Shown here: positions 146 through 18,515 of the stretch, piece after piece
Layout: every line of letters starts with the position of its first letter
How positions within the stretch are numbered: position 1 is the first letter of the stretch
Source: Georgenia muralis
GTDB lineage: Bacteria > Actinomycetota > Actinomycetes > Actinomycetales > Actinomycetaceae
DNA length: 24,000 bases
Reading direction: 5' to 3'
NCBI RefSeq assembly: GCF_003814705.1
Contig: NZ_RKRA01000001.1
Coordinates: 3,144,776-3,168,775 of the forward strand
The notes under the pieces: model-generated
Databases searched by the model: none
Seen by the model: the letters and a program-made list of their open reading frames with translations, nothing else
Told to the model about the DNA's origin: nothing
Made by a program: the position numbers and the translations under genes

Positions 146-526
146 TCAGCGACGCGCGTCGGACCACGCCTGCTGGAGGCGGTCGGGCCCCAGGGCGGCC
201 TTGTGCAGGTAGGCGGCGGCACCGGACTCGGCCACGAGCTGCTCGCCGACGTCGTCGTCGTAGGTGGACAGGAGCAGCACGGTCGGGACCGGCGACCCGC
301 GGAGCAGCCGTCTGGTGGCCTCCAGACCGTCGATACGGGGAAGGTTCACGTCCATGAGCACGAGGTCCGGGAGCACCTCGGCGGCCGCGGCGACGGCCTC
401 CTCGCCGGAGGAGGCGACTGCGACGACCTCGAACCCCGGCGTCTCCCCCACGACGGAGACCATGGCGAGGAGGAACGCCGCGACGTCGTCAACCACCAGC
501 ACCCGCACGACAGTCAACGCCGACAC
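146..526 (-). CDS. Receiver-only (CheY-like) response regulator with no output domain
   Basis: The translation has RVLVVDD, the phospho-acceptor context DLVLMDVNLPRIDG, LLLST and a conserved Lys (AAYLHK). At about 120 aa there is no DNA-binding domain. The GTG at 526 has AGGAG directly abutting it. The TTG at 517 (MTVVRVLVVDD) sits 9 nt after that AGGAG and is the more likely start. Confidence 0.85.
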   Translation of the reverse strand: MSALTVVRVLVVDDVAAFLLAMVSVVGETPGFEVVAVASSGEEAVAAAAEVLPDLVLMDVNLPRIDGLEATRRLLRGSPVPTVLLLSTYDDDVGEQLVAESGAAAYLHKAALGPDRLQQAWSDARR

Positions 527-534
527 CTCCTGGG

Positions 535-3500
535 TTGATCATGGCGCTGGGGCCGGCGCCGGGGGAGGAGGTCAGCCGCACGACGGGCGGTGCCAGCCCC
601 ACGACTGCCGGTCACGGAGCCGAGGCGCCGGGCCGACGGGCGCCCGGAACGCGGCTCACGGGCGCGCCATCGGACTCATCGTGCTCCTACGATCAGGGGG
701 TGCCGACTCCGGTCCTCGCGACCAAGCTGTTCGCGCCGGCCCGGCGCTCGCAGGTGGTCGAGCGCCCGCGACTGACCGCACAGCTGGACGCCACCCTCGA
801 CGCGGGCCACCGGCTCACGCTCGTGTCCGCGCCCGCCGGGTTCGGCAAGACCACCGCGCTGAGCGACTGGCTGGTCCACCTCGCCCGGCGTCAGCCACAG
901 GTCCGCGTCGCGTGGCTCTCCCTGGATGACGCCGACAACGACCTCACCCGCCTGATGACGCACGTCGTCGCCTCCCTCGACGGCGCCGGCCTGGGCGTCG
1001 ACCCGGCCGTGCTGGAGGCTCTGCACACCGGGCCGCCCGCGACCGCGCTGACCGCCTTCGTCAACGACGTCACGCGCGCCGGTGGCAGCGCGGCGGGGAA
1101 GCGGTGGGTGCTGGTGCTCGACGACTACCACGTCATCGAGGCGTCGGACGTGCTCGAGGCGGTGGCCTTCCTCCTCGAGCACGTCCCGGACCATCTGCGC
1201 CTCGTGGTGGCGACCCGCTCGGACCCGCCGCTACCGCTGGCGCGGCTGCGCACGAGTGGCCGGCTCACGGAGGTCCGGGCCGCCGACCTCCGCTTCCGCC
1301 CCGACGAGGCGCGGGAGCTGCTCAACCGGGCCATGGGGCTGGATCTGACCCCGGCGGACGTGGACGCCCTCGAGGGGCGTACCGAGGGCTGGGTCGCCGG
1401 GCTCCAGCTCGCCGCCTTGTCCCTGCGCGGCATGACCGGGCCGGGTGAGGTCGCCGGCTTCGTCGAGGCGTTCACCGGCAGCAACCGGTTCGTCATCGAC
1501 TACCTCGCCGACGAGGTGCTGGCCAGGCAGGACAGCTGGGTCCGCGACTTCCTGCTCGACACCGCCGTCCTCGACCGCCTCACCGGCCCCCTGTGCGACG
1601 CCGTCACCGGTCGGGCGGACGGCACCTCGATGCTGGTGGACCTCGAGCGTGCCAACCTGTTCCTGGTCCCGCTCGACACCGACCGCCGCTGGTACCGCTA
1701 CCACCACCTGTTCGCCGACGTCCTCCAGGCGCGCCTGCGCGCCGACCGCCCCGACCGCGTGCCGGGGCTGCACCAGCGGGCCGGGGTGTGGCTCGGCGAC
1801 CACGGCCTCGTGGAGGACGCCGTCCGGCACACGCTCGCCGCGGGGGACGTCGGCCGTGCCGCTCACCTCATGGAGACGGCGCTGCCGGAGCTGCGCCGCA
1901 ACCGCCGGGACGGCGTGCTGCTGTCCTGGGTGCCGCTGCTGCCCGAGGCCGTGGTCCGGCGCAGCCCGGTCCTGAGCATCCTCTCCGGCTGGTCGCTGAT
2001 GATGTCCGGCGACCTCGACGGGGCCGAGGCCCGGTTCGACGACGCCGAGGTGGCGCTCGCCGCGGGCGCTGTCGACCCGGGCCTCGCCGCCGCCTGGGCC
2101 GACACCGACGACCTCCGCACGGCGCCGGCGATCCTGGCGGTCTACCGCGCGTCGCTGGCCCAGGCCCGTGGCGACGTCGCCGGAACCGTCCGTCACGCGC
2201 GACGTGCCCTCGAGCTCGCCAGGCCCGGCGACCACTTCGTGCGCGGGGCCGGTGCGGGGTTCCTCGGCCTGGCCGCCTGGGCGGCCGGGGACGTGCGCGA
2301 GGCCCTGTCCACGTTCAGCGGGGCGCTGCACAGCCTGCGTGCGGCGGGGAACCTCGTCGACGAGCTCGACGGCACCGTGGTGCTCGCCGACATGTGGGTC
2401 GCCACCGGCCGGCCCGGCCGCGCCCGACGGCTGTGCGAGCAGGCGCTGCAGACCGCCACCGACGGTGGTCACCCGTACCTGCGGGCCGCCGCCGACCTGC
2501 ACGTCGCCCTGGCCGAGCTCGACCGGGAGATCGACGAGCTCGCCGGCGCCGAGGTCCACCTCGAGACAGCCCGGGTCCTGGGCGAGCGGACGTCGATCAC
2601 CGAGAACCGGCACCGGTGGTTCGTGGCGATGTCGCAGGTGCGCGCCGCCCGCGGGGACCACGAGAGCGCAGCCGCCCTGCTCGACCAGGCCGAGCTGCTG
2701 TACCGGCACGGCTTCTACCCCGACCTGCGTCCGATCGCCGCCATGAGGGCTCGCGTCCACATCGGCGCGGGCGACCTGGCGGCGGCGCGCGCCTGGGCCG
2801 AGCGACGAGGGATCGGCGTCGGCGACGACCCGGACCTCCTGCGCGAGTACGAGCACCTGACTCTGGCGCGGCTCCTCCTCGCCGACCACCGCGCCGGACG
2901 TCACGACGCGGGCAGCGCGTCCCCGGCCGAGGTGCTGGGGCTGCTGGACCGGCTGCACACCGCGGCCGTCAGCGACGGGCGGGAGGGCAGCGTGCTGGAG
3001 ATCCGGGTGCTGCAGGCGCTCGCCCACGACGCCCACGGGGACCTCTCCTCGGCGCTGGCCAGGCTCGGTCGCGCCCTGGGGGAGGCGCCCGAGCCGGACA
3101 GCCACGTGCGCCTCTACCTGGACGAGGGTGCCCCGGTGCTCGCGCTGCTGGACCGGCTCGCGCGACTCCCGGAACCGACCGCCGGTGCCGACGACGAGGC
3201 CTTCCACGGCGAGGGTGGCGAAGCGGTGCCGGCGCGCGCGCGTCGGCTCCTCGAGCGTGTGCGTACGGTCGAGCTCGCCGAGCCCGCGCCGCCATTGGTG
3301 GAGCCCCTGAGCCACCGCGAGGTCGATGTGCTGAGGCTGCTCGCCACCGAGCTGACCGGACCCGAAATCGCCCGGGAGCTCTACATCACGGTCAACACCC
3401 TGCGCACCCACACCAAGCACATCTTCACCAAGCTCGACGCCAGGACGCGGGCGGCCGCCGTGCGACGCGCCCGCGAGCGGGGGCTCCTCCAGCCCCCGCT

Positions 3501-3546
3501 CGAGCCGCCGGGTCACCGGACCGTCACCACGTCAGTCACATCATGA
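535..3546 (+). CDS. LAL/MalT-type large ATP-binding LuxR-family transcriptional regulator
   Basis: Walker A SAPAGFGKTT (about 826-855), Walker B VLVLDDYH, and a long Ala/Leu-rich TPR-like middle region. The C-terminal LuxR HTH reads LSHREVDVLRLLATELTGPEIARELYITVNTLRTHTKHIFTKLD. The start is uncertain: TTG 535 or ATG 541 lie only 8-15 nt from the divergent regulator. The in-frame GTG at 700 (VPTPVLATKLFAP, a typical family N-terminus) would leave a 173-bp divergent promoter region. Confidence 0.9.
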   Translation: MIMALGPAPGEEVSRTTGGASPTTAGHGAEAPGRRAPGTRLTGAPSDSSCSYDQGVPTPVLATKLFAPARRSQVVERPRLTAQLDATLDAGHRLTLVSAPAGFGKTTALSDWLVHLARRQPQVRVAWLSLDDADNDLTRLMTHVVASLDGAGLGVDPAVLEALHTGPPATALTAFVNDVTRAGGSAAGKRWVLVLDDYHVIEASDVLEAVAFLLEHVPDHLRLVVATRSDPPLPLARLRTSGRLTEVRAADLRFRPDEARELLNRAMGLDLTPADVDALEGRTEGWVAGLQLAALSLRGMTGPGEVAGFVEAFTGSNRFVIDYLADEVLARQDSWVRDFLLDTAVLDRLTGPLCDAVTGRADGTSMLVDLERANLFLVPLDTDRRWYRYHHLFADVLQARLRADRPDRVPGLHQRAGVWLGDHGLVEDAVRHTLAAGDVGRAAHLMETALPELRRNRRDGVLLSWVPLLPEAVVRRSPVLSILSGWSLMMSGDLDGAEARFDDAEVALAAGAVDPGLAAAWADTDDLRTAPAILAVYRASLAQARGDVAGTVRHARRALELARPGDHFVRGAGAGFLGLAAWAAGDVREALSTFSGALHSLRAAGNLVDELDGTVVLADMWVATGRPGRARRLCEQALQTATDGGHPYLRAAADLHVALAELDREIDELAGAEVHLETARVLGERTSITENRHRWFVAMSQVRAARGDHESAAALLDQAELLYRHGFYPDLRPIAAMRARVHIGAGDLAAARAWAERRGIGVGDDPDLLREYEHLTLARLLLADHRAGRHDAGSASPAEVLGLLDRLHTAAVSDGREGSVLEIRVLQALAHDAHGDLSSALARLGRALGEAPEPDSHVRLYLDEGAPVLALLDRLARLPEPTAGADDEAFHGEGGEAVPARARRLLERVRTVELAEPAPPLVEPLSHREVDVLRLLATELTGPEIARELYITVNTLRTHTKHIFTKLDARTRAAAVRRARERGLLQPPLEPPGHRTVTTSVTS

Positions 3547-4468: not shown

Positions 4469-4807
4469 ATGATCCGGCGACAGCACGGGACGGCCCACTA
4501 CCAGATCCGGGTCGAGGGACACCTCGACGAGTGCTGGTCGACGTGGTTCGGCGGGATGTCGCTCACCCGTGACGGCGACGGCGCAACCACCCTGCGCGGG
4601 CCGGTCGCCGACCAGGCCGCGCTGCACGGACTCCTCGTCAAGGTGCGTGATCTGGGAGTCCCCCTGATCTCGGTGAGGGCGGCTGACGCACCTGACGCAC
4701 CTGAGGCACCTGACGCGTTGAGCGAGCGTCGGCCGGTCGACGAGCCGCCGGACCGGTGCACCCGGCCCGGTCGGAGGCTGTTTCCGGGGGTGACTAGGCT
4801 CGACGAG
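4469..4807 (+). CDS. Small conserved actinobacterial domain (HYQIRVEGHLD...WF.GM.L...DG.T.L.GPV.DQAALHGLL.KVRDLG..L.SV), read in frame into the downstream hydrolase with no stop codon
   Basis: The N-terminal 70 aa match a pattern I recall from stand-alone 80-100 aa actinobacterial hypothetical proteins. After ...LISVRA the ORF runs through a 9-bp tandem repeat (ADAPDAPEAPDA) and a lower-GC3 linker into the hydrolase ATG at 4808. The end coordinate is therefore nominal. Confidence 0.5.
4685..4717 (+). repeat. Tandem 9-bp repeat GACGCACCT, about 3.7 copies (gacgcacct gacgcacct gaggcacct gacgcg)
   Basis: Read directly from the sequence. In frame it encodes DAP-DAP-EAP-DA. An alternative reading frame contains four TGA codons (4684, 4693, 4702, 4711). 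Confidence 0.9.
4795..4800 (+). promoter_or_regulatory. TAGGCT -10-like hexamer positioned for a leaderless transcript starting at or next to ATG 4808
   Basis: TANNNT match. The last T is 8 nt before the A of ATG 4808 (MELLRDAVDEAAERTGFSGVV, a typical hydrolase N-terminus). The identical hexamer occurs before the leaderless-looking gene at 5891. Confidence 0.35.
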
Positions 4808-5798
4808 ATGGAGCTCCTCCGGGACGCGGTGGACGAGGCGGCCGAGCGCACCGGGTTCTCGGGCGTGGTCCGCCTGGACCGCCGGGGTCGCACCGAGTTC
4901 TCCGTGGCCTACGGGTTCGCCGACCGCGCACACCGGATTCCCAACTCGCCCGAGACCCTTTTCGCGACCGCGAGCGGGTCCAAGGGCTTCACCGCCCTGG
5001 CGGTCATGGCCCTGGTCGAGCGCGGGACGCTCGAGCTCGCCACGCCTGCGCGGGTCGTTGCTGGGCGACGACCTGCCCCTGGTCGCCGACGACGTGACGG
5101 TCGAGCACCTCCTGGCGCACCGCTCGGGGATCCGGGACTACCTCGACGAGGACGCCCTGGGCGACGTCAGCGACTACGTCATGCCGGTACCGGTGCACGA
5201 GCTCGCGACGACGGAGCAGTTCCTGCGGGTGCTGGGCCCGTGCGACGCCGTCTTCCCCGCCGGCGAGCGGTTCGCGTACAACAACGGCGGGTACGTGCTG
5301 CTCGCGCTGCTGGCCGAACGGGCGAGCGGTGTCGGCTTCCACGAGCTGGTCCGCTCACGAGTCTGCGAGCCCGCGGGGATGGTGGACACGGGCTTCTTGC
5401 GGTCCGACGAGCTTCCCGGGTCTGCCGCCCGCGGCTACCTCGCCGTCGACGGCCTGAGGACGAACGTGCTCCACCTTCCCGTGCTCGGGAACGGCGACGG
5501 CGGGATCTACTCGACGGCCGCTGACCTCACCGCGTTCTGGGACGCCCTTCTCGCCGGCCGGATCGTCTCCCCGGAGCGGGTCGCGCAGATGCTGCAGCCG
5601 CGCAGCGTCTGGGCGGAGGGGTCCAGGCGCTACGGCCTGGGGTTTCACCTCGGCGGGACCACCGACCGGGTGTGGCTCGAGGGCCACGACGCCGGGGTGT
5701 CGTTCGTGAGCCAGCACCTGCCGTCGTCGTCGACCACCTACACCGTCATCTCGAACTGGTCGGAGGGCGCCTGGCCTGTCGTCGACCTGCTCGACTGA
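4808..5798 (+). pseudogene. Beta-lactamase-family serine hydrolase (class C / PBP4*-like), interrupted by a +1 frameshift at about 5051-5054
   Basis: The SxxK motif (ASGSKGF) and N-terminal part are in the frame of ORF 4469..5524. The YxN motif (FAYNNGGY) and the rest (…HDAGVSFV…) are in the frame of ORF 5058..5798. The frames switch inside cGGG at 5051-5054: ...ELATPAR|SLLGDDLPLV... is restored by removing one G. 991 nt minus 1 gives 330 codons. Confidence 0.8.
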
Positions 5799-5890: not shown

Positions 5891-6319
5891 ATGGCCTCAC
5901 GGTGGGTGCTGGTCGCGGTCTCAGCTGCTCAGCTGGCGGCCGGAGCAGCGGGGCAGGTCATCGCCCTCAGTGAGGGGCGAGCCTTCGACATCGACGTTTT
6001 GGGCTTTCGTGGGTCGCCCGCGCGGTTGGGCCGCGACTCGTGGCTGCTCGGGACCGGCTTGTCGGCTCCGGTCCTGATGCTGTCTGTCCAGGCGGTGGCG
6101 ACGATCCGTCTGGCGGCAGGGTCCAGCCGTGGTGCGACACGGGTGCTCGGGTCGTTGGGCGCGTTGATGACGTGCGGGTACCTCATCGAGAAGGAGGCCC
6201 GCGGCGCGCTGTCGCCGGCGGGCTGGAACCCGACGACGACGCCCGCCGTGGCGGCGGGGCTCACCCTCGCCGTGACGATGGCCGTCCTGGGCCCGCGGCA
6301 GGCGTCCAGCAGCAGCTGA
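5891..6319 (+). CDS. Small 4-TM membrane protein, function unknown (probably leaderless)
   Basis: 142-aa ORF with GC3 of about 87% and four hydrophobic segments (WVLVAVSAAQLAAGAAGQVIAL, LLGTGLSAPVLMLSVQAVATI, VLGSLGALMTCGYLI, PAVAAGLTLAVTMAVLG). I recognise no family. Confidence 0.6.
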   Translation: MASRWVLVAVSAAQLAAGAAGQVIALSEGRAFDIDVLGFRGSPARLGRDSWLLGTGLSAPVLMLSVQAVATIRLAAGSSRGATRVLGSLGALMTCGYLIEKEARGALSPAGWNPTTTPAVAAGLTLAVTMAVLGPRQASSSS

Positions 6320-6338
6320 TGCCGGCGCGCACCTGCGA

Positions 6339-6377
6339 GCCCCTCGCGGCCGGGTGTCGAGCCGGGCCGTGAGGGGC
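6339..6377 (+). terminator. Strong hairpin: 13-bp stem gcccctcgcggcc / ggccgtgaggggc (one G-U pair), 13-nt loop
   Basis: Read directly. It starts 20 nt after the stop at 6317-6319. It has no U tail, which is common in high-GC actinobacteria. It separates the 142-aa gene from the heliorhodopsin gene. Confidence 0.45.
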
Positions 6378-6572
6378 CCGCAAGGCGACTCTCAGCGGTG
6401 AGCGCGCGCGTGGCTGCGGGTCGATGGGAGACCAGGTGCCGATCATGCTCACGCCATGACCCCCGTCCGAGGTCCGGCCAGAGTCGATGGTCCCTGCCGA
6501 GCGGCGCACGTGATCCGCCGGCCATAGCCTCGCAGAACAGCGCGCCGGTTCGAGGACGAGCGCGGCAGGCGG

Positions 6573-7358
6573 GTGGGACCATCAGGCATGGAGGTCCGGT
6601 CGAACGAGGCGGAACGCCAGACCAGATCGCTGCGTCTGGCGAATGCCGGAGCAGCGGTGCTCCACGCGGTCCAGGCCGTCGCCGTGCTCGTGCTCGCCAC
6701 GGACTTCGCCCTGCCGGTGACCGCGAGCTACATGGCCGGTCCGCCGGGTACGCCGCCCTCGGAGCCCGTGGTTCTCCTCGACATCTCCACCGGGGCGGCT
6801 GTCGCGGCGTTCCTGGCCCTGTCCGCGCTGGCGCACCTCATCGTCTCCACGGCGTGGTGGCACCGGTACGTCGCGGACCTGGGCCGCCAGCGCAACCCCG
6901 CCCGATGGGTGGAGTACTCGCTCTCGTCGTCGCTCATGATCGTCCTGATCGCACAGCTGGTCGGCATATCCGACGTGGCTGCCCTGCTCGCCCTGTTCGG
7001 CGTGAACGCCGCCATGATCCTGTTCGGCTGGTTGCAGGAGAACTACGAGCGCCCCGGAGGCGGCTGGCTGCCCTTCGTCTTCGGGTGCGTGGCCGGTGTG
7101 GTCCCGTGGCTGGCGATCACCGTCTACCTGCTGTCGCCCGGCTCGACGTCGTCGGCCTCGCCTCCGGGTTTCGTCTACGGCATCTTCGTGTCGCTGTTCG
7201 TCTTCTTCAACGCCTTCGCCCTCAACCAGTGGCTGCAGTACCGCGCCAACGGCCGGTGGCGGGACTACCTGTTCGGCGAGAGGGCCTACATCGTGCTGAG
7301 CCTGACGGCGAAGTCAGCCTTGGCCTGGCAGGTCTTCGGGGGCACGCTGGCCGCATGA
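6573..7358 (+). CDS. Heliorhodopsin (7-TM retinal protein, inverted topology)
   Basis: Near end-to-end similarity, from memory, to heliorhodopsin 48C12. Shared blocks: DFALPVT, GPPGT, RWVEYSLSSSLMIVLIAQ, ALLALFGVNAAMILFGWLQE, LPFVFGCVAGVVPW, SPGSTS, PGFVYGI, FFNAFAL, GERAYIVLSLTAKSALAWQVF. The Schiff-base Lys codon is AAG at 7311-7313 and the counter-ion Glu codon is GAG at 6912-6914. The start is either GTG 6573 or, more likely, ATG 6588 (GGTGGGA about 10 nt upstream; 256 aa). Confidence 0.93.
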   Translation: MGPSGMEVRSNEAERQTRSLRLANAGAAVLHAVQAVAVLVLATDFALPVTASYMAGPPGTPPSEPVVLLDISTGAAVAAFLALSALAHLIVSTAWWHRYVADLGRQRNPARWVEYSLSSSLMIVLIAQLVGISDVAALLALFGVNAAMILFGWLQENYERPGGGWLPFVFGCVAGVVPWLAITVYLLSPGSTSSASPPGFVYGIFVSLFVFFNAFALNQWLQYRANGRWRDYLFGERAYIVLSLTAKSALAWQVFGGTLAA

Positions 7359-7525: not shown

Positions 7526-8302
7526 GTGGAGACCTGGGCCACCCAGGAGGAGCTCGGCCGGCGTCTCGGGGTCGATACCCAGGCCGCGGGGGAGCTGCTC
7601 ATCAGTGCTGGACTGAAGGTGGGCCGGGAGGCCACCCCCGACGCGCTGTCGCGGGGGCTCGCGGCGCCGGACGTCTCGCCGCTCGGCCGGCCGTTCCTCC
7701 GGTGGCAGACCGCGGAGGTCCTCCCGCTCCTCGAGCCCCTGGCGCGGCGCCTCCAGGAGGCACCGGCCGTCCCGGCCGCCCGTCCGTCCAGGACGCCTGC
7801 CAAGCGCCGCTCCCCTGCCACCCCCCCGAGGGCCACCCGTCCGCCCGCCACCGCGCCGGCAGCCGGCACGACCTTCGACGCGGTGATCGCGGTTCGCGCC
7901 GTCGCCGACCCGGACCCGGGGCCGACCGGCTGGGCCTACATGAACCAGCGCACCAGGGTCACCACGACCGGCGCGATGCCGTACGCGACGGAGAAGGAGG
8001 GCGAGCTGCTCGCCGTCCTTCACCTGCTGGACCACGCGCCGTCAGAGGCCCATCTCCTCATCAGGACCGACTCCGAGCACCTCGTGAAGGTCGCGACGGT
8101 GTGGGGGCCCACCTGGCATCGCAACGGCTGGAAGCAGCGCGACGGGCAGCGCCCGGAGGACCTCGCCCTCGTCGAGCCGCTCCTGACCACCATCGCGAAG
8201 CGGGCCGGCCGCGCCAGGTTCGGGCTGGCCGACAGCGGCGACGAGTTCATCGTCGCGGCGACCCGGAGTGCGCTGGAGGCCGCGCACCAGGAGAGCTCCT
8301 GA
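7526..8302 (+). CDS. RNase H-like domain protein with an unknown N-terminal domain and a Pro/Ala/Arg-rich linker
   Basis: The C-terminal 140 aa resemble RNase HI: GPTGWAY, EKEGELLAVL (E48 position), LIRTDSEHL (D70 position), WHRNGWKQRDGQRPEDLALV (compare E. coli [20 protein letters not shown]) and ADSGDEF. The ORF is open from GTG 7481, but GTG 7526 has GGAAGGAG ending 6 nt upstream and is preferred. Confidence 0.7.
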   Translation: METWATQEELGRRLGVDTQAAGELLISAGLKVGREATPDALSRGLAAPDVSPLGRPFLRWQTAEVLPLLEPLARRLQEAPAVPAARPSRTPAKRRSPATPPRATRPPATAPAAGTTFDAVIAVRAVADPDPGPTGWAYMNQRTRVTTTGAMPYATEKEGELLAVLHLLDHAPSEAHLLIRTDSEHLVKVATVWGPTWHRNGWKQRDGQRPEDLALVEPLLTTIAKRAGRARFGLADSGDEFIVAATRSALEAAHQESS

Positions 8303-10660: not shown

Positions 10661-11776
10661 TTGACCACCACCGACCAGCCGATCGCCCACGGATCCGTCG
10701 AGAACGCGATGACGCAGGGCGACAGCCCCGAGCTGACCCAGCTGTACCGGGACCTCGACGCCGAGCACCTCCACCCGCTGTGGACCCAGCTCGACGACCT
10801 CATGCCGATGGAGCCGGCCCCCAAGGCCGTGCCGCACGTGTGGAAGTGGTCCACGCTGTACCCGCTCGCGCAGCGCTCCGGCGACCTCGTCCCCGTGGGG
10901 CGCGGCGGCGAGCGGCGCGCGATCGGCCTGGCCAAGCCCGGCCTGGGCGGCAACACCTACATCTCCCCGACGCTGTGGTGCGCGATCCAGTACCTCGGGC
11001 CGAAGGAGACCGCGCCGGAGCACCGCCACTCCCAGAACGCCTTCCGCTTCGTCGTCGAGGGCGAGGGGGTCTGGACGGTCGTCAACGGCGACCCGGTGCG
11101 CATGTCGCGCGGCGACCTGCTGCTCACCCCGGGCTGGAACTTCCACGGCCACCACAACGAGACCGACCAGCCGATGGCCTGGATCGACGGCCTCGACATC
11201 CCGTTCTCCTCCGCCAACGACGTGGGCTTCTTCGAGTTCGGCTCGGAGCGGGTCACCGACTACGCCACACCGAACTTCTCGCGCGGCGAGCGGCTGTGGA
11301 CCCACCCGGGCCTGCGTCCGCTCTCGGGTCTGCAGGACACCGTCTCCTCCCCGATCGGTGCCTACCGGTGGGAGCACACCGACCGGGCCCTGACCGAGCA
11401 GCTCCTGCTCGAGGACGAGGGCCAGCCGGCCACCGTCGAGCAGGGCCACGCCGCCGTGCGCTACGTCAACCCCACCACCGGCGGCGACGTCATGCCCACC
11501 ATCCGGGCGGAGTTCCACCGGCTCCGCGCCGGCACCGCGACCCCCGCCCGCCGCGAGGTCGGCTCGACGGTGTTCCAGGTCTTCGAGGGCTCCGGCTCCG
11601 TGGTCCTGGGCGGCACCGAGCACCGGCTCGAGGTCGGCGACCTGTTCGTGGTGCCCTCCTGGGTGCCGTGGTCCCTGCAGGCGGACACGCTGTTCGACCT
11701 GTTCCGTTTCTCGGACGCGCCGATCATGGAGCGTCTGCACTTCGACCGTGTGCACGTCGACGGAGGCAACCGATGA
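10661..11776 (+). CDS. Gentisate 1,2-dioxygenase (bicupin)
   Basis: 371 aa. Cupin metal-ligand context EHRHSQNAFRFVVEGEG and HGHHNETDQPM. Typical family blocks are LHPLWT, WKW, PTLWCAIQYL and RF.DAP. The TTG start at 10661 has GAAGGAG 8 nt upstream. Confidence 0.92.
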   Translation: MTTTDQPIAHGSVENAMTQGDSPELTQLYRDLDAEHLHPLWTQLDDLMPMEPAPKAVPHVWKWSTLYPLAQRSGDLVPVGRGGERRAIGLAKPGLGGNTYISPTLWCAIQYLGPKETAPEHRHSQNAFRFVVEGEGVWTVVNGDPVRMSRGDLLLTPGWNFHGHHNETDQPMAWIDGLDIPFSSANDVGFFEFGSERVTDYATPNFSRGERLWTHPGLRPLSGLQDTVSSPIGAYRWEHTDRALTEQLLLEDEGQPATVEQGHAAVRYVNPTTGGDVMPTIRAEFHRLRAGTATPARREVGSTVFQVFEGSGSVVLGGTEHRLEVGDLFVVPSWVPWSLQADTLFDLFRFSDAPIMERLHFDRVHVDGGNR

Positions 11777-12636
11777 AGCTCACCACCATCCGCCTGGCCG
11801 GCGGCGCGACGGTCGCCGCCCGCGTCGACGGCGACACCGCCGTCGAGCTCGGCTTCGCCGACGTCGGCGACCTCCTGCGCCGCGGTGACCTCGGCGCCGT
11901 CGCGACCGCCACCGGCGCCACGCACGACCTGGCCTCGGCCGAGCTGGCGCCCGTGGTCGTCGCGCCCGCCAAGATCGTGTGCGTCGGGCTGAACTACCGC
12001 AACCACATCCTCAAGATGGGCCGGGAGCTGCCCGAGCACCCGACCCTGTTCGCCAAGTACCCGGACGCGCTCGTCGGCCCCCGGGACGAGATCCAGCTGC
12101 CGCCGGAGTCGGACAAGGTGGACTGGGAGGGCGAGCTCGCCGTCGTCATCGGCAGGACGGTCCGACGCGCCGACGCCGAGCAGGCGGCGGCCGCCATCGC
12201 CGGGTACTCGGTGCTCAACGACGTCACCATGCGCGACTACCAGTACCGCAGCCCGCAGTGGTTCCAGGGCAAGACCTGGGAGCGCTCGACCCCCCTCGGC
12301 CCGGTCCTCGTCACCCCCGACGAGATGCCCGACGGCGCCCAGCTCGTCACCCTCCTGGACGGCGAGGAGGTCCAGCGCACCCCGGTCGACGACCTCGTCT
12401 TCTCCGCGGTCGAGCTGGTGCGGTACATCTCCACGATCTTCACCCTCAACCCGGGTGACGTCATCGCCACCGGCACCCCGGGCGGGGTGGGCCACGCGCG
12501 GAGGTCGGGCCGGTACATCACCGCCGGCCAGACCCTCACGACGAGGATCGACGGCATCGGCGAGCTCGTGAACGTCGCGGTGGCCGAGCAGCTCGACGCC
12601 GCTGCGGCGCGGGAGCCGGACGTGGTGCGGGCATGA
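11773..12636 (+). CDS. FAH-family hydrolase, probable fumarylpyruvate hydrolase
   Basis: Signature KIVCVGLNYRNH, WEGELAVVIG, NDVTMRD.Q, QW..GK and GDVIATGTPGGVG. The ATG overlaps the dioxygenase stop (ATGA at 11773-11776). This is the 3' part of the artificial 906-aa track ORF. Confidence 0.85.
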   Translation: MKLTTIRLAGGATVAARVDGDTAVELGFADVGDLLRRGDLGAVATATGATHDLASAELAPVVVAPAKIVCVGLNYRNHILKMGRELPEHPTLFAKYPDALVGPRDEIQLPPESDKVDWEGELAVVIGRTVRRADAEQAAAAIAGYSVLNDVTMRDYQYRSPQWFQGKTWERSTPLGPVLVTPDEMPDGAQLVTLLDGEEVQRTPVDDLVFSAVELVRYISTIFTLNPGDVIATGTPGGVGHARRSGRYITAGQTLTTRIDGIGELVNVAVAEQLDAAAAREPDVVRA

Positions 12637-13412
12637 GCACGACGACGGAGGAGGAGGCCCGCGCCGCCCTGCGCGAGCGCCTGGGTGCGGGGGCGCGCTA
12701 CGACGACCCGGCCGCCCCGGCGCGTGAGCTCGGGTGGGCCCGGCGCGGCACCGCCTACTTCGCGCGCAAGCTCAACGAGCTCAGCGACGACCAGCTCGAC
12801 GAGCCGAGCCTGCTGCCCGGGTGGAGCCGGCGCGCGCTGGTCGCGCACGTGGGCTACAACGCCCGGGCGCTGACGCGGCTCACCGAGTGGGCGGCGAGCG
12901 GTGTCGAGACGCCGATGTACGCCTCGCCCGAGCAGCGCAACGCCGAGATCGAGCGAGGCTCCACCCTGCCGGCCCGGGCCCTGCGCAACCTCTTCGCCCA
13001 CTCCGAGGTCCACCTCAACGTGGAGTGGCGTGACCTCCGTGCGCAGGCGTGGGACGCCGAGGTGGTGACCGCGCAGGGGCGGACCGTCCCGGCCCGGGAG
13101 ACGGCGTGGATGCGGGCCCGCGAGGTTTGGGTCCACGCCGTCGACCTCGACAACGGCGGGTCCTACCTCGACCTCCCGCCGGAGATGCTCGACGAGCTCG
13201 TGGCGGACGTGCTGCGGAGCTGGGCCCGCAGGGGCGAGGAGGTCGACCTCGTCCTGGCCCCGACCGACCGGTCGGCGACGCACGCCGTCGGTGCCGACGG
13301 CCCGACCGTCTCGGGCACCACCGCCGACCTCGTCCGCTGGCTGACGGGGCGGGGCGAGCGGCGCCTGACGTCCAGCACGGGCACCGTCCCCGCCGTGCCC
13401 CGCTGGCTCTGA
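12633..13412 (+). CDS. Mycothiol-dependent maleylpyruvate isomerase (MDMPI/DinB-like)
   Basis: 259 aa with an N-terminal DinB-like helical region (...LPGWSRRALVAHVGYNARAL...REVWVHAVDL...). Its position is after the gentisate dioxygenase and hydrolase. ATGA start/stop overlap at 12633-12636. Confidence 0.8.
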   Translation: MSTTTEEEARAALRERLGAGARYDDPAAPARELGWARRGTAYFARKLNELSDDQLDEPSLLPGWSRRALVAHVGYNARALTRLTEWAASGVETPMYASPEQRNAEIERGSTLPARALRNLFAHSEVHLNVEWRDLRAQAWDAEVVTAQGRTVPARETAWMRAREVWVHAVDLDNGGSYLDLPPEMLDELVADVLRSWARRGEEVDLVLAPTDRSATHAVGADGPTVSGTTADLVRWLTGRGERRLTSSTGTVPAVPRWL

Positions 13413-13840: not shown

Positions 13841-14842
13841 ATGATGCGCCCCGCGCGCCTGCTCGGCGCCCTCGCCGCCTCCGCCCTCCTCCTCGCCGGC
13901 TGCGGCTCGACCGACGACGACGCGCCCGCCGGCGGCGGCACGGACGCCACCGGCGCCGCCGCAGAGACCGTCGAGATCGGCATCACCCAGATCGTCTCCC
14001 ACCCGTCCCTCGACGCCGCGCGGGAGGGCTTCAAGCGCGCGCTCGCGGAGAACGGGGTCGAGGCCACGTACGACGAGCAGAACGCCCAGGGTGACCAGTC
14101 CACCGCCACATCCATCGCCAACACGTTCGCCACGGGCGGGAAGGACCTCGTCCTGGCCATCGCCACACCCACGGCGCAGGCCGCGGCGCAGGCGATCACC
14201 GACGTCCCCGTGCTCTTCACCGCCGTCACCGAGCCGGCGGAGGCCGGGCTGGTGGACAGCTGGGAGGCGCCCGGCGGGAACCTCACCGGCACCTCGGACC
14301 TCAACCCGGTCCGTGAACAGCTCGAGCTGCTGGTCGAGATCGCGCCCGACGCCGAGACGGTCGGCATCGTCTACAGCTCCGGCGAGGTCAACTCCGAGGT
14401 GCAGGTCGAGCTCGCCAAGGAGGCGGCCGACGAGCTCGGCCTGACGATCGAGGAGGCCACCGTGAGCACCTCCGCCGAGGTCCAGCAGGCCGCCCAGTCC
14501 CTCGAGGTCGACGCGTTCTACATCCCCACCGACAACGCCGTCGTCTCGGCGCTCGAGTCCGTGATCGCCGTCGCCGAGCAGCGCCAGGTGCCCCTCGTCG
14601 TCGGCGAGTCCGACAGTGTGGAGCGCGGCGGCCTGGCCACCTACGGCATCGACTACGACAAGCTCGGCTACCAGACCGGGCTCATGGCGGTCCAGATCCT
14701 CACCGAGGGCGCCGACCCGGCCGAGATGCCGGTGGAGACGCTCGAGGAGCTCACCCTCGTCGTCAACAGCGGCGCGGCCGAGCGCATGGGCGTGAGCATC
14801 CCGCAGGCGGTCCTCGACCGCGCTGACACGGTCGTCGAGTAG
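13841..14842 (+). CDS. ABC transporter substrate-binding lipoprotein (ABC_sub_bind / COG2984 type, substrate unknown)
   Basis: Signal peptide plus lipobox: MMRPARLLGALAASALLLAGC. Family blocks are IGITQIVSHPSLDAAREGFK, LAIATPTAQAA, PVLFTAVTEP and NLTGTSD. Confidence 0.9.
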   Translation: MMRPARLLGALAASALLLAGCGSTDDDAPAGGGTDATGAAAETVEIGITQIVSHPSLDAAREGFKRALAENGVEATYDEQNAQGDQSTATSIANTFATGGKDLVLAIATPTAQAAAQAITDVPVLFTAVTEPAEAGLVDSWEAPGGNLTGTSDLNPVREQLELLVEIAPDAETVGIVYSSGEVNSEVQVELAKEAADELGLTIEEATVSTSAEVQQAAQSLEVDAFYIPTDNAVVSALESVIAVAEQRQVPLVVGESDSVERGGLATYGIDYDKLGYQTGLMAVQILTEGADPAEMPVETLEELTLVVNSGAAERMGVSIPQAVLDRADTVVE

Positions 14843-15744
14843 TGGTCGTCGCCGTCGAGCTGGGCCTCCTCTACGCCGTCATGGCGCTGGGGGTCTATCT
14901 CACCTTCCGGATTCTCGACTTCCCCGACCTCACGGTCGACGGGTCGTTCACCACGGGCGGTGCGACGGCGGCCATGCTCATCATCTCCGGCACCCCGCCG
15001 CTGCTCGCGACGGCGGCGGCGGGCGTGACCGGACTGGCCGCCGGGGTCATCACCGGCGTCCTGCACACCAAGGGCAGGATCAACGGCCTCCTCGCCGGCA
15101 TCCTCACCCAGATCGGGCTGTACTCGATCAACCTGCGGATCATGGGCGGCAAGGCCAACTTGCCGCTGCTGCGCGAGGAGACGCTGTTCACCCCGCTGCG
15201 GGACTCGGCCCTGCTCGGCACCGCGGTCGCCGTCGGCATCTTCACCGTCGGCGCCCTTGCCCTCAAGCTCGTGCTCGACTGGTTCCTCCACACCGACACC
15301 GGCCTGGCCATGCAGGCCACGGGCGACAACGAGGAGATGATCCGGTCCTTCGGTGTCTCCACGGACTTCATGAAGGTGCTCGGGCTGGCGCTGTCCAACG
15401 GCCTCGTCGCGGTGTGCGGGGCGCTCATCGCGCAGTACCAGGGCTTCGCCGACGTCGGCATGGGGATCGGCCTGATCGTCGCCGGTCTCGCGTCGGTCAT
15501 CATCGGCCAGGCGATCGTGGGCCAGCGCGTCATCGTCGTCGCCACGCTCGCCGTCGTCGTCGGCTCGGTGCTCTACCGCGTGGTCATCCAGGTGGCCCTC
15601 GGCGCGGGCCTGAACCCCAACGACATGAAGCTCATCTCGGCCGTGCTCGTCGTCCTCGCCCTCGTCCTGCCGCGCTGGTCGGTGCTGCGGCGGTTCAAGC
15701 CGGCCCGGCGGGTGCGGGACGTGACCGCAGGGGCGGAGGCCTGA
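14842..15744 (+). CDS. ABC transporter permease (COG4120 type)
   Basis: 300 aa and highly hydrophobic (about 8 TM). The GTG start overlaps the binding-protein stop (TAGTG). Confidence 0.88.
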   Translation: MVVAVELGLLYAVMALGVYLTFRILDFPDLTVDGSFTTGGATAAMLIISGTPPLLATAAAGVTGLAAGVITGVLHTKGRINGLLAGILTQIGLYSINLRIMGGKANLPLLREETLFTPLRDSALLGTAVAVGIFTVGALALKLVLDWFLHTDTGLAMQATGDNEEMIRSFGVSTDFMKVLGLALSNGLVAVCGALIAQYQGFADVGMGIGLIVAGLASVIIGQAIVGQRVIVVATLAVVVGSVLYRVVIQVALGAGLNPNDMKLISAVLVVLALVLPRWSVLRRFKPARRVRDVTAGAEA

Positions 15745-16535
15745 TGCTCCACGTCGACGGCGTCACCCAGACCTTCTTCCCGGGCAGCGTGAACGAGCGG
15801 GTCGCGCTGCGGGAGGTGGAGCTCCGGCTCTTCGAGGGCGAGTTCGTCACCGTCATCGGGTCCAACGGTGCGGGGAAGTCGACGCTGCTCAACGTCGTCT
15901 CCGGCAAGCTCCGGCCGGAGGCGGGGAGGGTGCGGATCGACGAGCGGGACGTCACCCGGCTCGCCGACTTCCAGCGTGCCCGCTACATCGGCCGGGTCTT
16001 CCAGGACCCGATGGCCGGGACGGCCCCGCACATGACGATCGAGGAGAACCTCGCGATCGCGTTCGAGCGTGGCCGCCGGCGCGGCCTGCGGCGCGGGGTG
16101 ACGGGCGCGAAGCGGGAACGGTTCCGCGAGGACCTCGCCAGCCTCGAGCTCGGTCTGGAGAACCGGCTGCGGGCGAAGGTCGGTCTGCTCTCCGGCGGTC
16201 AGCGCCAGGCCCTCTCGCTGCTCATGGCGACCTTCTCCGAGCCGCGCATCCTGCTGCTGGACGAGCACACGGCAGCTCTCGACCCGCAGCGCGCAGCCCT
16301 GATCTCCCGGCTCACCGCCGAGCTCGTCGAGCGCCACCGGCTGACGACGCTCATGGTCACGCACAACATGGAGCAGGCCCTGAGCATGGGCACGCGGCTC
16401 ATCATGATGCACGAGGGCCGCATCATCCTCGACGTCGACGACGCCCGGAAGTCGCGCATGAGCCCGGCCGACCTGCTGGCCGAGTTCGAGAAGATCAAGG
16501 GCGGCGGTCTCGACGACCGCACCCTCCTGCAGTAG
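15744..16535 (+). CDS. ABC transporter ATP-binding protein (COG1101 type)
   Basis: Walker A GSNGAGKST, signature LSGGQRQAL, Walker B ILLLDEHTAALD and H-loop VTHN. The ATG overlaps the permease stop (TGATG). Confidence 0.92.
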   Translation: MLHVDGVTQTFFPGSVNERVALREVELRLFEGEFVTVIGSNGAGKSTLLNVVSGKLRPEAGRVRIDERDVTRLADFQRARYIGRVFQDPMAGTAPHMTIEENLAIAFERGRRRGLRRGVTGAKRERFREDLASLELGLENRLRAKVGLLSGGQRQALSLLMATFSEPRILLLDEHTAALDPQRAALISRLTAELVERHRLTTLMVTHNMEQALSMGTRLIMMHEGRIILDVDDARKSRMSPADLLAEFEKIKGGGLDDRTLLQ

Positions 16536-16626: not shown

Positions 16627-18515
16627 CTACCGACCACGGGGCCCACCGGCGGCCCGTCGTGACGCCTCCAGCGCCCGGGCCAGGGACTCTGTGTCGTGGG
16701 GGCCCGTGTGCCGGGCCTCCCCGACGAAGAAGGTGGGCGTGCCGCGCGCCCCGCTGGCCTCCGCGCTCGCCACGTCCGCGCGGACCAGGGCAGCGGTGTC
16801 CTCGTCGTCCAGGTCACGCAGGAAGGCCTCGACGTCCAGGCCGAGGTCCCGGGCATACCCGGCGAGGTCGGCGACGTCGAGCTGGTCCTGGTGCGAGAAC
16901 AGCAGGTCGTGCATCTCCCAGAAGCGGCCCTGCCGCTGCGCGGCGACCGCGGCGCGGGCGGCCCGCTCGGCCCGGGGGTGCACGTCGACGAGCGGAAGGT
17001 GGCGGAAGACGTAGCGGAGGTCGTCGCCCAGGCGCTCCCGGAGCTCGTCGGTCACCCCGGTGGCGCGGGCGCAGAACGGGCACTCGAAGTCGCCGTACTC
17101 GACCAGCGTGAGGGGTGCGTCGACGGGGCCACGGATCTGGTCGCGGGCCGGGTCCACCGGCCGGTCGAGGAACCGGGGGAGGTCCGCGTCGGTCTGGCCG
17201 CGGAAGACGGCGGCGGCACGGAAGACCGCCCAGCCGAGCGCGGTCCCGACCACGGCGGCGATGAGGACGCCGACCGTGGCCTGGTCACGCAGCGCCGGGT
17301 CGTCGAAGGCGAGACCGGCGATGAGGAGGGCGACGGTGAAGCCGATCCCCGACAGCGCCGCGCCGCCGAGGACGTGCCCGAACCCGACCCCGGCGGGCAG
17401 CCGGCCCAGACCGGCTCGCACCGCAGCCCGCGTCGTCAGGCCCACACCGAGAAGCTTGCCGACGACGAGCGCGACCACCACCGCCCACGTGAGGCGGGAC
17501 GAGAGCGCCTCGACGAGCACGCCGTCGCGCAGGTCGACCCCGGCGTTGGCCAGGGCGAACAGGGGCACCACGACGTAGCCGGCCCAGGGGTGCAGGGTGG
17601 TCTGGAGCCGCTCGTTGACCGACACGGCGCGGACCAGGCCCAGGCGCGCGGACCGGCCGACCACGACGTCGGGAGACTGGCGGAACGGCGGAACCGCACC
17701 GCCGCTCCCTCGACCAGGTCGCGTGCGGGCGGGTGGGCCGCCACCAGCAGGCCGCCGAGCATGCCGGCGATCGAGGCGTGGAGACCCGCCTGGACGGCGG
17801 CCACCCACAGCGCGAGGCCGACCGCGGCGTACGGTGCCGCCCGCCACACGCCGAGCCGGCTGAACACCGCCAGCAGCGTCCCCAGGGCCGCCATGGCGAC
17901 GAGTGCGGCCACGTCGAGGGACTCGGTGTAGAACACGCCGATGACGCTGACGGCGACGATGTCGTCGATGACCGTCAGGGTGAGGAGGAAGACCCGCAGC
18001 TGGGTGGCGAACGTGGGGCCCACCACGGCCAGGGCGCCGAGCATGAAGGCCGTGTCGGTCCCGATCACCACGCCCCACCCGCGGGCCGCGTCACCACCCG
18101 GTGCCAGCGCGAGGAAGAGCAGCGCCGGGACGGCCAGGCCGCCCAGGGCGGCGGCCACCGGGACGGCGGTGCGCCGGAGGTCGGTGAGCTCACCGACCGA
18201 GAGCTCGCGCCGGACCTCCAGGCCGATGACGAAGAAGAACAGCGCCATGAGGCCGTCGTTGACCCAGTGGCCCAGATCCGTCGACAGCTCCCAGCCGGCC
18301 ACCGAGACGCCCGCCTCGACCGCCCAGAACGAGAGGTAGGCGTCGGACCACGGCGAGTTCGCCCAGGCCAGGGCGACCACGGTGGCCGCCAGCAGCAGCC
18401 CTGCGCTCCCGGCCTCCGTGCTGAGGAACCGCCGGGCTGGTGCCGACAGCTGGGCGAGGAGGGCGCGCCGACCCGCCCGGGTCTGCACCCGTGCCGGTGG
18501 TGGATCGGCAGGCAT
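16627..18515 (-). pseudogene. nhaA: Na+/H+ antiporter NhaA fused to a C-terminal DsbA-like thioredoxin domain, frameshifted by an 8-bp tandem duplication
   Basis: The N-terminal NhaA part (…[21 protein letters not shown]…[11 protein letters not shown]…) is in ORF 17436..18515. The rest of NhaA ([11 protein letters not shown]…[15 protein letters not shown]) plus the DsbA domain ([16 protein letters not shown]) is in ORF 16627..18078. The frames join at the duplicated ggcggaac/ggcggaac. 1889 nt minus 8 gives 627 codons. Confidence 0.88.
17679..17694. repeat. Perfect 8-bp tandem duplication GGCGGAAC GGCGGAAC (minus strand GTTCCGCC x2)
   Basis: Read directly. Removing one copy gives ...[17 protein letters not shown]... 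and restores a single 626-aa reading frame. Confidence 0.9.

Follow-up and report, generated by a model that had tools for sequence, protein, structure and literature searches.

We conclude that the open reading frame at 6588-7358 of a 24-kb stretch of the Georgenia muralis genome (the window, meaning the whole 24,000 nucleotides analysed) very probably encodes a functional heliorhodopsin (HeR) of the 48C12 subfamily, one that would not transport ions and would most likely act as a light-dependent regulator of a partner protein. The protein is already known: its 256 residues are identical to WP_170175308.1 / RPF28325.1 / UniProt A0A3N5A4N3, and it is named in RefSeq and UniProt ('heliorhodopsin HeR [Georgenia muralis]'). 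The family is also large, with 7,865 proteins at E <= 1e-20 among the candidates examined and 447 HeR loci confirmed in species-representative genomes. Cultured carriers include Nocardioides agariphilus, N. koreensis, N. gilvus, N. flavus, Janibacter terrae, Knoellia and Actinomadura. Because the exact protein is already named and its family is very large and well described, we regard this HeR as ordinary, and there is nothing unusual in its sequence. An earlier note on this DNA had ranked the gene as the most valuable object in the window. That ranking does not hold for a protein that is annotated and has more than 7,800 homologs, in a family whose cultured-actinobacterial members have been expressed and measured, specifically the HeRs of N. 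dokdonensis (555 nm) and Knoellia aerolata (553 nm) (PMC7807009).

Family membership, functional residues and start codon

At the sequence level, the match to the heliorhodopsin family is far beyond chance. The Pfam model PF18761 (Heliorhodopsin) was matched over its full length (model 1-242/242) with 342.6 bits and an E-value of 1.4e-102, against a score cutoff of 26.7 bits, and the NCBIfam equivalog NF038020 ('heliorhodopsin HeR') gave 343.9 bits (model 1-244/244) against a cutoff of 100 bits. When the protein was compared with the PDB using HMMER, the best match was 48C12 (6SU3/6UH3/9LJJ; E about 1e-95), with 62% identity across 245 aligned residues. The Thermoplasmatales HeR (6IS6) was also matched, with an E-value of 8e-63. 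The blocks of 48C12 that the earlier note had quoted are all found in the alignment to 6su3/6uh3/9ljj, namely DFALP(V/M)T, GPPGT, RWVEYSLSSS..., ALLA.FGVNA.MILFGWLQE, LPF.FGC.AG.VPW,.PGSTS, PGFVYGI, FFN.FAL and GERAYIVLSL.AKSALAWQ.F. In addition, dN/dS was 0.13-0.22 against eight relatives (dS 0.26-0.88), which indicates purifying selection on the gene, and the third-codon-position GC of the open reading frame (0.90) is similar to that of neighbouring genes. The host is a cultured and named species of Actinomycetota, in line with the cultivable-type, high-GC actinobacterial context suggested from the letters, and as a monoderm prokaryote it follows the distribution rule for prokaryotic HeRs. 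Together, the family models, the alignment to solved structures, the fold match described below, purifying selection and the cultured actinobacterial host agree with the description of the gene as a bona fide heliorhodopsin.

The residues expected of a heliorhodopsin are in place (Table 1). The lysine and glutamate codons lie where the earlier note had put them, and correspond to K241 and E107 of 48C12; the two conserved histidines align with 48C12 H23 and H80 (H26 and H83 from the ATG, or H31 and H88 in GTG numbering). K242 aligns with the Schiff-base lysine of the solved 48C12 structure on helix G and falls inside the corresponding helix of our structure model, so that the expected location of this lysine in TM7 is borne out. 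There is a single glutamate counter-ion in helix 3 (E109, in RWVEY), a serine (S238) at the position of Asp212 in type-1 rhodopsins, and a pair of histidines (H26 and H83) lining the Schiff-base cavity. K242, E109, H26, H83, S238, S79 and S113 do not vary among 50 aligned homologs, although this is a shallow alignment whose rows are all at least 76% identical. We also mapped in full, by alignment, the list of 43 important 48C12 residues taken from Kovalev et al. 2020 (PMC7049168), which comprises the Schiff-base stabilisers, the Schiff-base cavity, the hydrophobic barrier, the Glu149 region, the surface polar clusters, the retinal pocket, the positive-inside residues, the AB-loop proline and the dimer contacts. 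Identity was found at 41 of the 43 positions, and the other two are K to R substitutions.

The distribution of lysine and arginine (four in the N-terminus, four in the BC loop, five in the FG segment and none in the AB and EF loops) fits a topology with a cytoplasmic N-terminus, as the earlier note had expected, and an outside C-terminus; a positive-inside/negative-outside charge pattern explains the inverted topology of 48C12 (PMC7049168). The AlphaFold2 model predicts seven transmembrane helices and a beta-hairpin in the AB loop, with the retinal lysine in the last helix, helix G (227-255). Its confidence is moderate (pLDDT 69.5, pTM 0.64) because of the shallow alignment. In a Foldseek search with this model, 10 heliorhodopsin chains came out on top (TM 0.72-0.78, E 1e-17 to 6e-12), of which 48C12 (6SU3/6SU4; TM 0.77, E 1e-17) and TaHeR were the best fold matches, and bacteriorhodopsin and other type-1 rhodopsins reached E-values of only about 1e-2.

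Re-reading of the plus strand gave the open reading frame at the same coordinates as before, with 261 aa from GTG 6573, 256 aa from ATG 6588 and a stop codon at 7356-7358. Both lengths put forward by the earlier note thus exist, but the GTG was rejected as a start and the ATG is the real one. Several observations lead to this choice: in the relative L001, the counterpart of the GTG does not lie in the reading frame of the conserved ATG; a conserved upstream block, GGGTGGGACCATCAGGCATG, contains the Shine-Dalgarno-like sequence GGGTGGGA; independent gene callers picked the equivalent ATG in the related contigs L081-L086; and the deposited protein in public collections is the 256-aa form, the 261-aa form having no match in a 15-billion-protein collection in which the 256-aa form is present. 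The block GG(G/A)TGG(G/C)ACCATCAGG(G)CATG is common to the window, L081 and L001. We infer that GGGTGGGA acts as the ribosome-binding site, and the nucleotides between the GTG and the ATG are probably an untranslated leader.

Table 1. Features of the heliorhodopsin locus (positions in the window; residue numbers from ATG 6588)
Feature	Position	Strand	Evidence
142-aa membrane-like hypothetical protein (WP_123918465.1), upstream of HeR	5891..6319	+	exact G. muralis match
GC-rich 21-nt inverted repeat (hairpin), just past the stop of the 142-aa ORF	6334..6382	+	dG -49.5 kcal/mol, z -4.6 vs shuffles
Shine-Dalgarno-like GGGTGGGA, 9 nt before ATG 6588	6571..6578	+	conserved upstream block
Five in-frame codons added by the alternative GTG start	6573..6587	+	GTG out of frame in L001; 261-aa form absent from collection
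Heliorhodopsin CDS, 256 aa + stop	6588..7358	+	Pfam, NCBIfam and PDB matches, exact database match, dN/dS
His codon, H26 (= 48C12 H23), helix A	6663..6665	+	alignment
S79 (= 48C12 S76)			alignment
His codon, H83 (= 48C12 H80), helix B	6834..6836	+	alignment
GAG, counter-ion Glu E109 (= 48C12 E107) in RWVEY	6912..6914	+	alignment
S113 (= 48C12 S111)			alignment
S238 (= 48C12 S237)			alignment
AAG, retinal Schiff-base Lys K242 (= 48C12 K241), helix G	7311..7313	+	6su3 alignment; model helix 227-255
RNase H family protein, 258 aa (WP_123918467.1), 167 nt downstream of HeR, co-directional	7526..8302	+	Pfam RNase_H, E 4.4e-9

Genomic surroundings and the cassette of close relatives

The window carries, in order, an orphan response regulator, a MalT/LuxR-type large regulator, a membrane protein, a frameshifted beta-lactamase-family serine hydrolase, the 142-aa hypothetical protein, HeR, the RNase H-family protein, a zinc alcohol dehydrogenase, a gentisate-pathway trio, an ABC importer, a split NhaA-DsbA gene, Lsr2, YetF, xylulokinase and methylglyoxal synthase. 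Exact G. muralis database entries were found for four of the neighbours (the 142-aa hypothetical protein, a 246-aa fragment of the serine hydrolase, the 258-aa RNase H family protein and xylulokinase). The 142-aa protein gave no Pfam match and has an 86% identical ortholog in L081. The hairpin just past its stop codon is terminator-like and would separate HeR from this upstream gene, so HeR probably has its own promoter within 6383-6587. Folding of the DNA after the HeR stop codon gave no significant hairpin in comparison with shuffled sequences (z 0.24), and read-through into the RNase H-family gene is therefore possible. A sigma-70 promoter scan returned 0 sites, which says little for DNA of 73% GC, and the single terminator-like match of the scan lies inside the HeR coding sequence.

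The RNase H-family gene is the sole consistent follower of HeR, limited to Georgenia-type contigs. Specifically, the order hydrolase / 141-142-aa ORF / HeR / RNase H-family was seen only in L081 and L086, both Georgenia-type metagenomic contigs, and is also kept in three Logan contigs that encode an identical HeR protein. The RNase H-family gene adjoins HeR in none of 80 other HeR loci, and the 142-aa protein is likewise not linked to HeR in the other genomes (80 related loci). More generally, a tblastn comparison of 13 window proteins with 80 HeR loci found none that is linked to HeR, and the context therefore points to no partner or output. With regard to the partners reported for other HeRs, the 24-kb window contains no glutamine synthetase, no photolyase and no exporter-type ABC system; an ABC system of the importer type lies at 13.8-16.5 kb, 6.5 kb from HeR. 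Retinal-synthesis and carotenoid genes (crt/blh) are also absent from these 24 kb; blh is often missing from genomes in which HeR is the only rhodopsin.

In close relatives (HeR 85-91% identical; L002-L009, L013-L015, L021 and L025), HeR lies within a conserved cassette. This cassette includes, on the opposite strand, a MerR_1 + B12-binding_2 + B12-binding protein with the architecture of CarH/LitR, and a Sigma70_r4_2 gene divergent from it. HeR either overlaps the sigma-like gene or starts at most 58 nt after it, a gene of the SOUL heme-binding family follows about 20 nt past HeR, and TerC and DUF4397 genes are often nearby. The divergent intergenic region (~140 bp) is strongly conserved and contains TTGTACA/TTGTGCA repeats. 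By analogy with the LitR/LitS and CarH systems (PMC11519972), this arrangement suggests that HeR is induced by light in a B12-dependent manner in the cassette-bearing genomes. Most of the neighbour content of the cassette has been noted previously: SOUL domains and cobalamin-binding proteins are among the common HeR neighbours (Chazan et al.), and MerR-family and TerC groups have been listed as well (Cho et al.). A link between heliorhodopsin and LitR was not found in the literature searched. Nor did any paper in that literature deal with both Georgenia and heliorhodopsin, so that the G. muralis protein is annotated but unstudied.

The Georgenia gene does not lie in such an arrangement (MerR-B12 / sigma-like / HeR / SOUL). 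Searches of the window with the TerC, sigma-like, MerR-B12, DUF4397, SOUL and HTH proteins gave an unrelated ABC ATPase as the sole match. The putative operator or promoter motifs of the cassette, CTTGTGCAAACC and TTGTACAGACTA, were rejected for the window, where they occur at chance level only and never near HeR. In a neighbour-joining tree without support values, the HeRs of the window and of L081 nest inside the cassette clade, yet the window contains no cassette proteins, nor the repeat motif above chance level, and we therefore read the Georgenia copy as a cassette-type HeR in a different location. Horizontal transfer from Nocardioidaceae is possible on these sequence grounds; we did not accept it as established, considering that the tree carries no support values, that paralogy is common (three HeR copies in one MAG), that the composition of the window is uniform and that the close relatives are mostly MAGs. 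A further step, in which a relocated or transferred cassette-type HeR lost its wiring and is now coupled to the downstream RNase H-family protein, is very doubtful. If it were true, a light-modulated nucleic-acid-processing pair would be present in a cultivable host, and knockouts could show a physiological output of HeR.

Proposed mechanism and alternative readings

We propose a membrane protein of seven helices whose N-terminus faces the cytoplasm. All-trans-retinal would be bound to K242 through a protonated Schiff base, and E109 would serve as its only counter-ion, with S79, S113 and S238 stabilising this glutamate. Retinal binding is predicted from the conserved pocket residues, and absorption near 550-556 nm is predicted because the equivalents of Q148, Q213 and A240, together with GPPG, are those of the >550 nm class. 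If the protein behaves like 48C12 and TaHeR, green-yellow light near these wavelengths would convert the retinal to the 13-cis form. The Schiff-base proton would then pass to an internal cavity formed by water, His26 and His83 without being released from the protein, and a seconds-long, O-like late state would be next. HeR would not move ions in this process, because its extracellular half keeps the hydrophobic residues of 48C12. Its output would most probably be to regulate a partner protein in response to light, via the cytoplasmic loops of HeR. Regulation of partners has been described for AbHeR and glutamine synthetase (PMC9529153) and for TfHeR and a photolyase (PMC9769723), and OcHeR is reported to regulate the OmrDE ABC exporter (PMC11109279). 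In view of these three systems, the statement in the earlier note that the output of HeRs is largely unresolved is dated; the same applies to its statement that the characterised members show no ion pumping, given that proton-transporting viral HeRs are known (PMC9448325). Expression of the Georgenia gene would start from its own promoter, and HeR may share a transcript with the downstream RNase H-family gene.

Four alternatives to this reading were weighed, and each is unlikely. Some HeRs do move protons (PMC9448325), and the Schiff-base lysine, the counter-ion and a glutamate equivalent to E215 (E231) are all present in the Georgenia protein, which could speak for an ion (proton) transporter. 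Against this, the positions of E191, W195 and E205 in the viral V2HeR3 are occupied by L203, F207 and Q217 (ATG numbering), residues identical to those of 48C12, a protein without detected transport and with a hydrophobic extracellular half (PMC9448325). The glutamate at 191, tryptophan at 195 and polar extracellular half of the proton-transporting viral type are thus missing, and with 62% identity to 48C12 and all pocket residues conserved, we consider a transporter barely credible. A light-dependent enzyme or lipid handler that serves membrane repair or remodelling under photo-oxidative stress, as hypothesised by Chazan et al., is improbable too. In its favour, oxidative-stress families and DegV/DUF2177 are over-represented among the neighbours of HeR across taxa (Chazan et al.), lipids are bound at the fenestration in HeR crystals, the equivalents of N207 and N138 that line the fenestration pocket are conserved here, and a SOUL gene lies directly downstream of HeR in the close relatives. 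The window itself, however, is devoid of DegV, DUF2177, SOUL, glutaredoxin and catalase genes, and the literature consulted reports no catalytic activity for any HeR.

It could also be argued that the specific target of HeR is the product of the downstream RNase H-family gene, in the manner of TfHeR and photolyase, so that the two would form a light-modulated nucleic-acid enzyme pair. The genes are co-directional, 167-172 nt apart with no hairpin between them, and are kept together in three Georgenia-type sequences at a dS of ~0.26; side-by-side genes for an HeR and its partner have a precedent in PMC9529153, PMC9769723 and PMC11109279. Yet the pairing is found in one lineage only, where ordinary synteny explains it, and does not occur at any of the 80 other HeR loci. 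RNase H is moreover outside the ten recurrent neighbour groups of PMC11109279, and the Pfam match of the downstream protein is partial (model 15-96 of 141), which leaves this pairing highly improbable as a functional one. The remaining alternative is an intact but physiologically idle opsin in a host that may not make retinal. The 24 kb contain no carotenoid or retinal genes, blh rarely co-occurs in genomes with HeR only, and the nearby serine-hydrolase gene is frameshifted, so the stretch tolerates decay. An idle gene is nevertheless very unlikely in view of a dN/dS of 0.13-0.22 and the full conservation of the retinal-pocket residues; in addition, an alternative retinal route of unknown nature has been inferred for actinobacteria, and our view of the gene content covers 24 kb of a 4.14-Mb genome.

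As a discovery, the G. muralis HeR carries little weight, being correctly annotated and part of a large family with solved structures. In practice it is of modest value: G. muralis can be cultivated, and its HeR is stand-alone within the window and retains all functional residues. A cultivable host with a stand-alone, intact HeR is therefore one of many possible hosts for work on the output of prokaryotic HeRs, and the control of HeR expression may become clearer from a comparison with the relatives in which the gene is preceded by a B12-photoregulator/sigma pair.

Comparison with known heliorhodopsins

With the viral V2HeR3 (PMC9448325), the Georgenia protein has in common the fold family, the counter-ion glutamate and the glutamate equivalent to E215, but it differs by L, F and Q in place of E191, W195 and E205 and by a hydrophobic extracellular half. 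With the regulatory HeRs (AbHeR, TfHeR and OcHeR), it shares the family and, by analogy, the probable character of a non-transporting sensor with a slow photocycle; these three proteins are the source of our working model, in which a partner is regulated through the loops. Unlike in those systems, the genes for their partners are not adjacent to HeR in G. muralis, and in the scheme of PMC11109279 the Georgenia gene falls into 0 of the 10 recurrent-neighbour groups. The HeRs of N. dokdonensis and K. aerolata carry the same signature of the >550-nm class (Q148/Q213/A240 equivalents and GPPG); the named HeRs from Nocardioides, Marmoricola and Nocardioidaceae are 77-87% identical to the window protein, a comparison that covers HeRs other than that of N. 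dokdonensis. The close relatives, mostly Actinomycetota MAGs (L036 is labelled Nocardioides sp.), have cassette-borne HeRs, whereas the G. muralis HeR is stand-alone and lies elsewhere.

The fullest likeness is to 48C12, which was described from a freshwater actinobacterial fosmid by Pushkarev et al. 2018 and has been solved in PDB entries 6SU3, 6SU4, 6UH3 and 9LJJ. In contrast to 48C12, the window protein has two K to R substitutions at the cytoplasmic FG side, differs by single-residue indels in the BC loop and the DE loop, and is known from its sequence. Its host is a cultured actinobacterium (soil/wall), whereas that of 48C12 is an uncultured actinobacterium from a lake. The Schiff-base lysine, the glutamate counter-ion, both histidines, the serine triad, the Glu149 region, the pocket residues and the GPPG of the AB loop are identical in the two proteins, and 48C12 is the best fold match to the model of the Georgenia HeR.

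Placement of the Georgenia heliorhodopsin and HeR paralogy in relatives

In an NJ tree without support values, the G. muralis heliorhodopsin (HeR) lies within a group of HeRs in which the named members come from Nocardioidaceae. The Nocardioidaceae proteins are 81-87% identical to it and those of Janibacter and Knoellia only 76%, and current NCBI taxonomy places Georgenia in the order Allobogoriellales. Horizontal transfer is a possible explanation of this placement, judged from that unsupported NJ topology. A single metagenome-assembled genome (MFD09848.bin.1.114) carries three HeR paralogs (loci L006, L026, and L041) in three kinds of context, namely cassette type (see below), TerC+HTH type, and TerC+DUF4397 type. 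In this group, both the number of HeR copies and their genomic setting are thus fluid, and calls of orthology or horizontal transfer become harder.

Upstream region and neighboring genes

Both Georgenia-type metagenomic contigs, L081 and L086, contain a segment of ~430 bp between a hypothetical 141-aa ORF and HeR that is missing in G. muralis (see table), and we therefore recognize a lineage-specific indel directly 5' of the HeR promoter region. On its minus strand, the segment carries an ORF of 126 aa, for which we found no Pfam match. Further upstream, the frame of a serine hydrolase gene is broken by one additional G within a G-run when compared to the intact orthologs of L081 and L086 (327-329 aa). 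Three independent Logan assemblies carrying an identical HeR, as well as RefSeq (WP_281274888.1), also contain only the 246-aa C-terminal piece, and the gene thus appears to be genuinely truncated or a pseudogene, and not the product of an assembly error.

The gene for an NhaA-DsbA fusion is likewise divided: Pfam Na_H_antiport_1 matches at positions 2-236 in one frame and at positions 242-373, together with Thioredoxin_4/DSBA, in the other, which points to a frameshift at roughly 17,620-17,730. We also observed a gentisate-degradation cluster downstream of HeR and, at the start of the window, a tail-to-head overlap between a response-regulator receiver gene and a STAND regulator gene.

Features of the window and of related HeR loci
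Feature	Sequence	Position	Strand	Remarks
Response-regulator receiver gene	window	146-538	-	orphan
MalT/LuxR-type STAND regulator	window	region 146-3546	+	roughly 1000 aa; AAA_16, TPR_MalT, GerE
Beta-lactamase-family serine hydrolase	window	4469-5798	+	two frames; frameshift near 5051-5053
Counterpart of extra segment	window	6420-6448
HeR	window	6588-7358	+	256 aa
Bicupin gentisate 1,2-dioxygenase-like gene	window	within 10709-13412	+	gentisate cluster
FAA-hydrolase (fumarylpyruvate hydrolase-like) gene	window	within 10709-13412	+	gentisate cluster
Mycothiol-dependent maleylpyruvate isomerase	window	within 10709-13412	+	gentisate cluster
ABC importer	window	13841-16535		after gentisate cluster
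NhaA Na+/H+ antiporter fused to DsbA/thioredoxin domain	window	16627-18515	-	two reading frames
Extra segment	L081	5427-5861
Extra segment	L086	1551-1931
Cassette example	L003	4391-7373

The cassette of close relatives

Close HeR relatives (loci L002-L009, L013-L015, L021, and L025) share a cassette in which HeR comes immediately after a Sigma70_r4 gene and before a SOUL-family gene, with a MerR+B12-binding gene of CarH/LitR type divergent from the Sigma70_r4 gene. The sigma-like member is not named in the published lists of HeR neighbors that we consulted. The cassette's intergenic region (~140 bp) is highly conserved and contains TTGTACA/TTGTGCA repeats. Together, the regulator and sigma-like genes and this conserved, repeat-bearing region suggest that HeR is under B12-dependent light induction in the genomes that carry the cassette.
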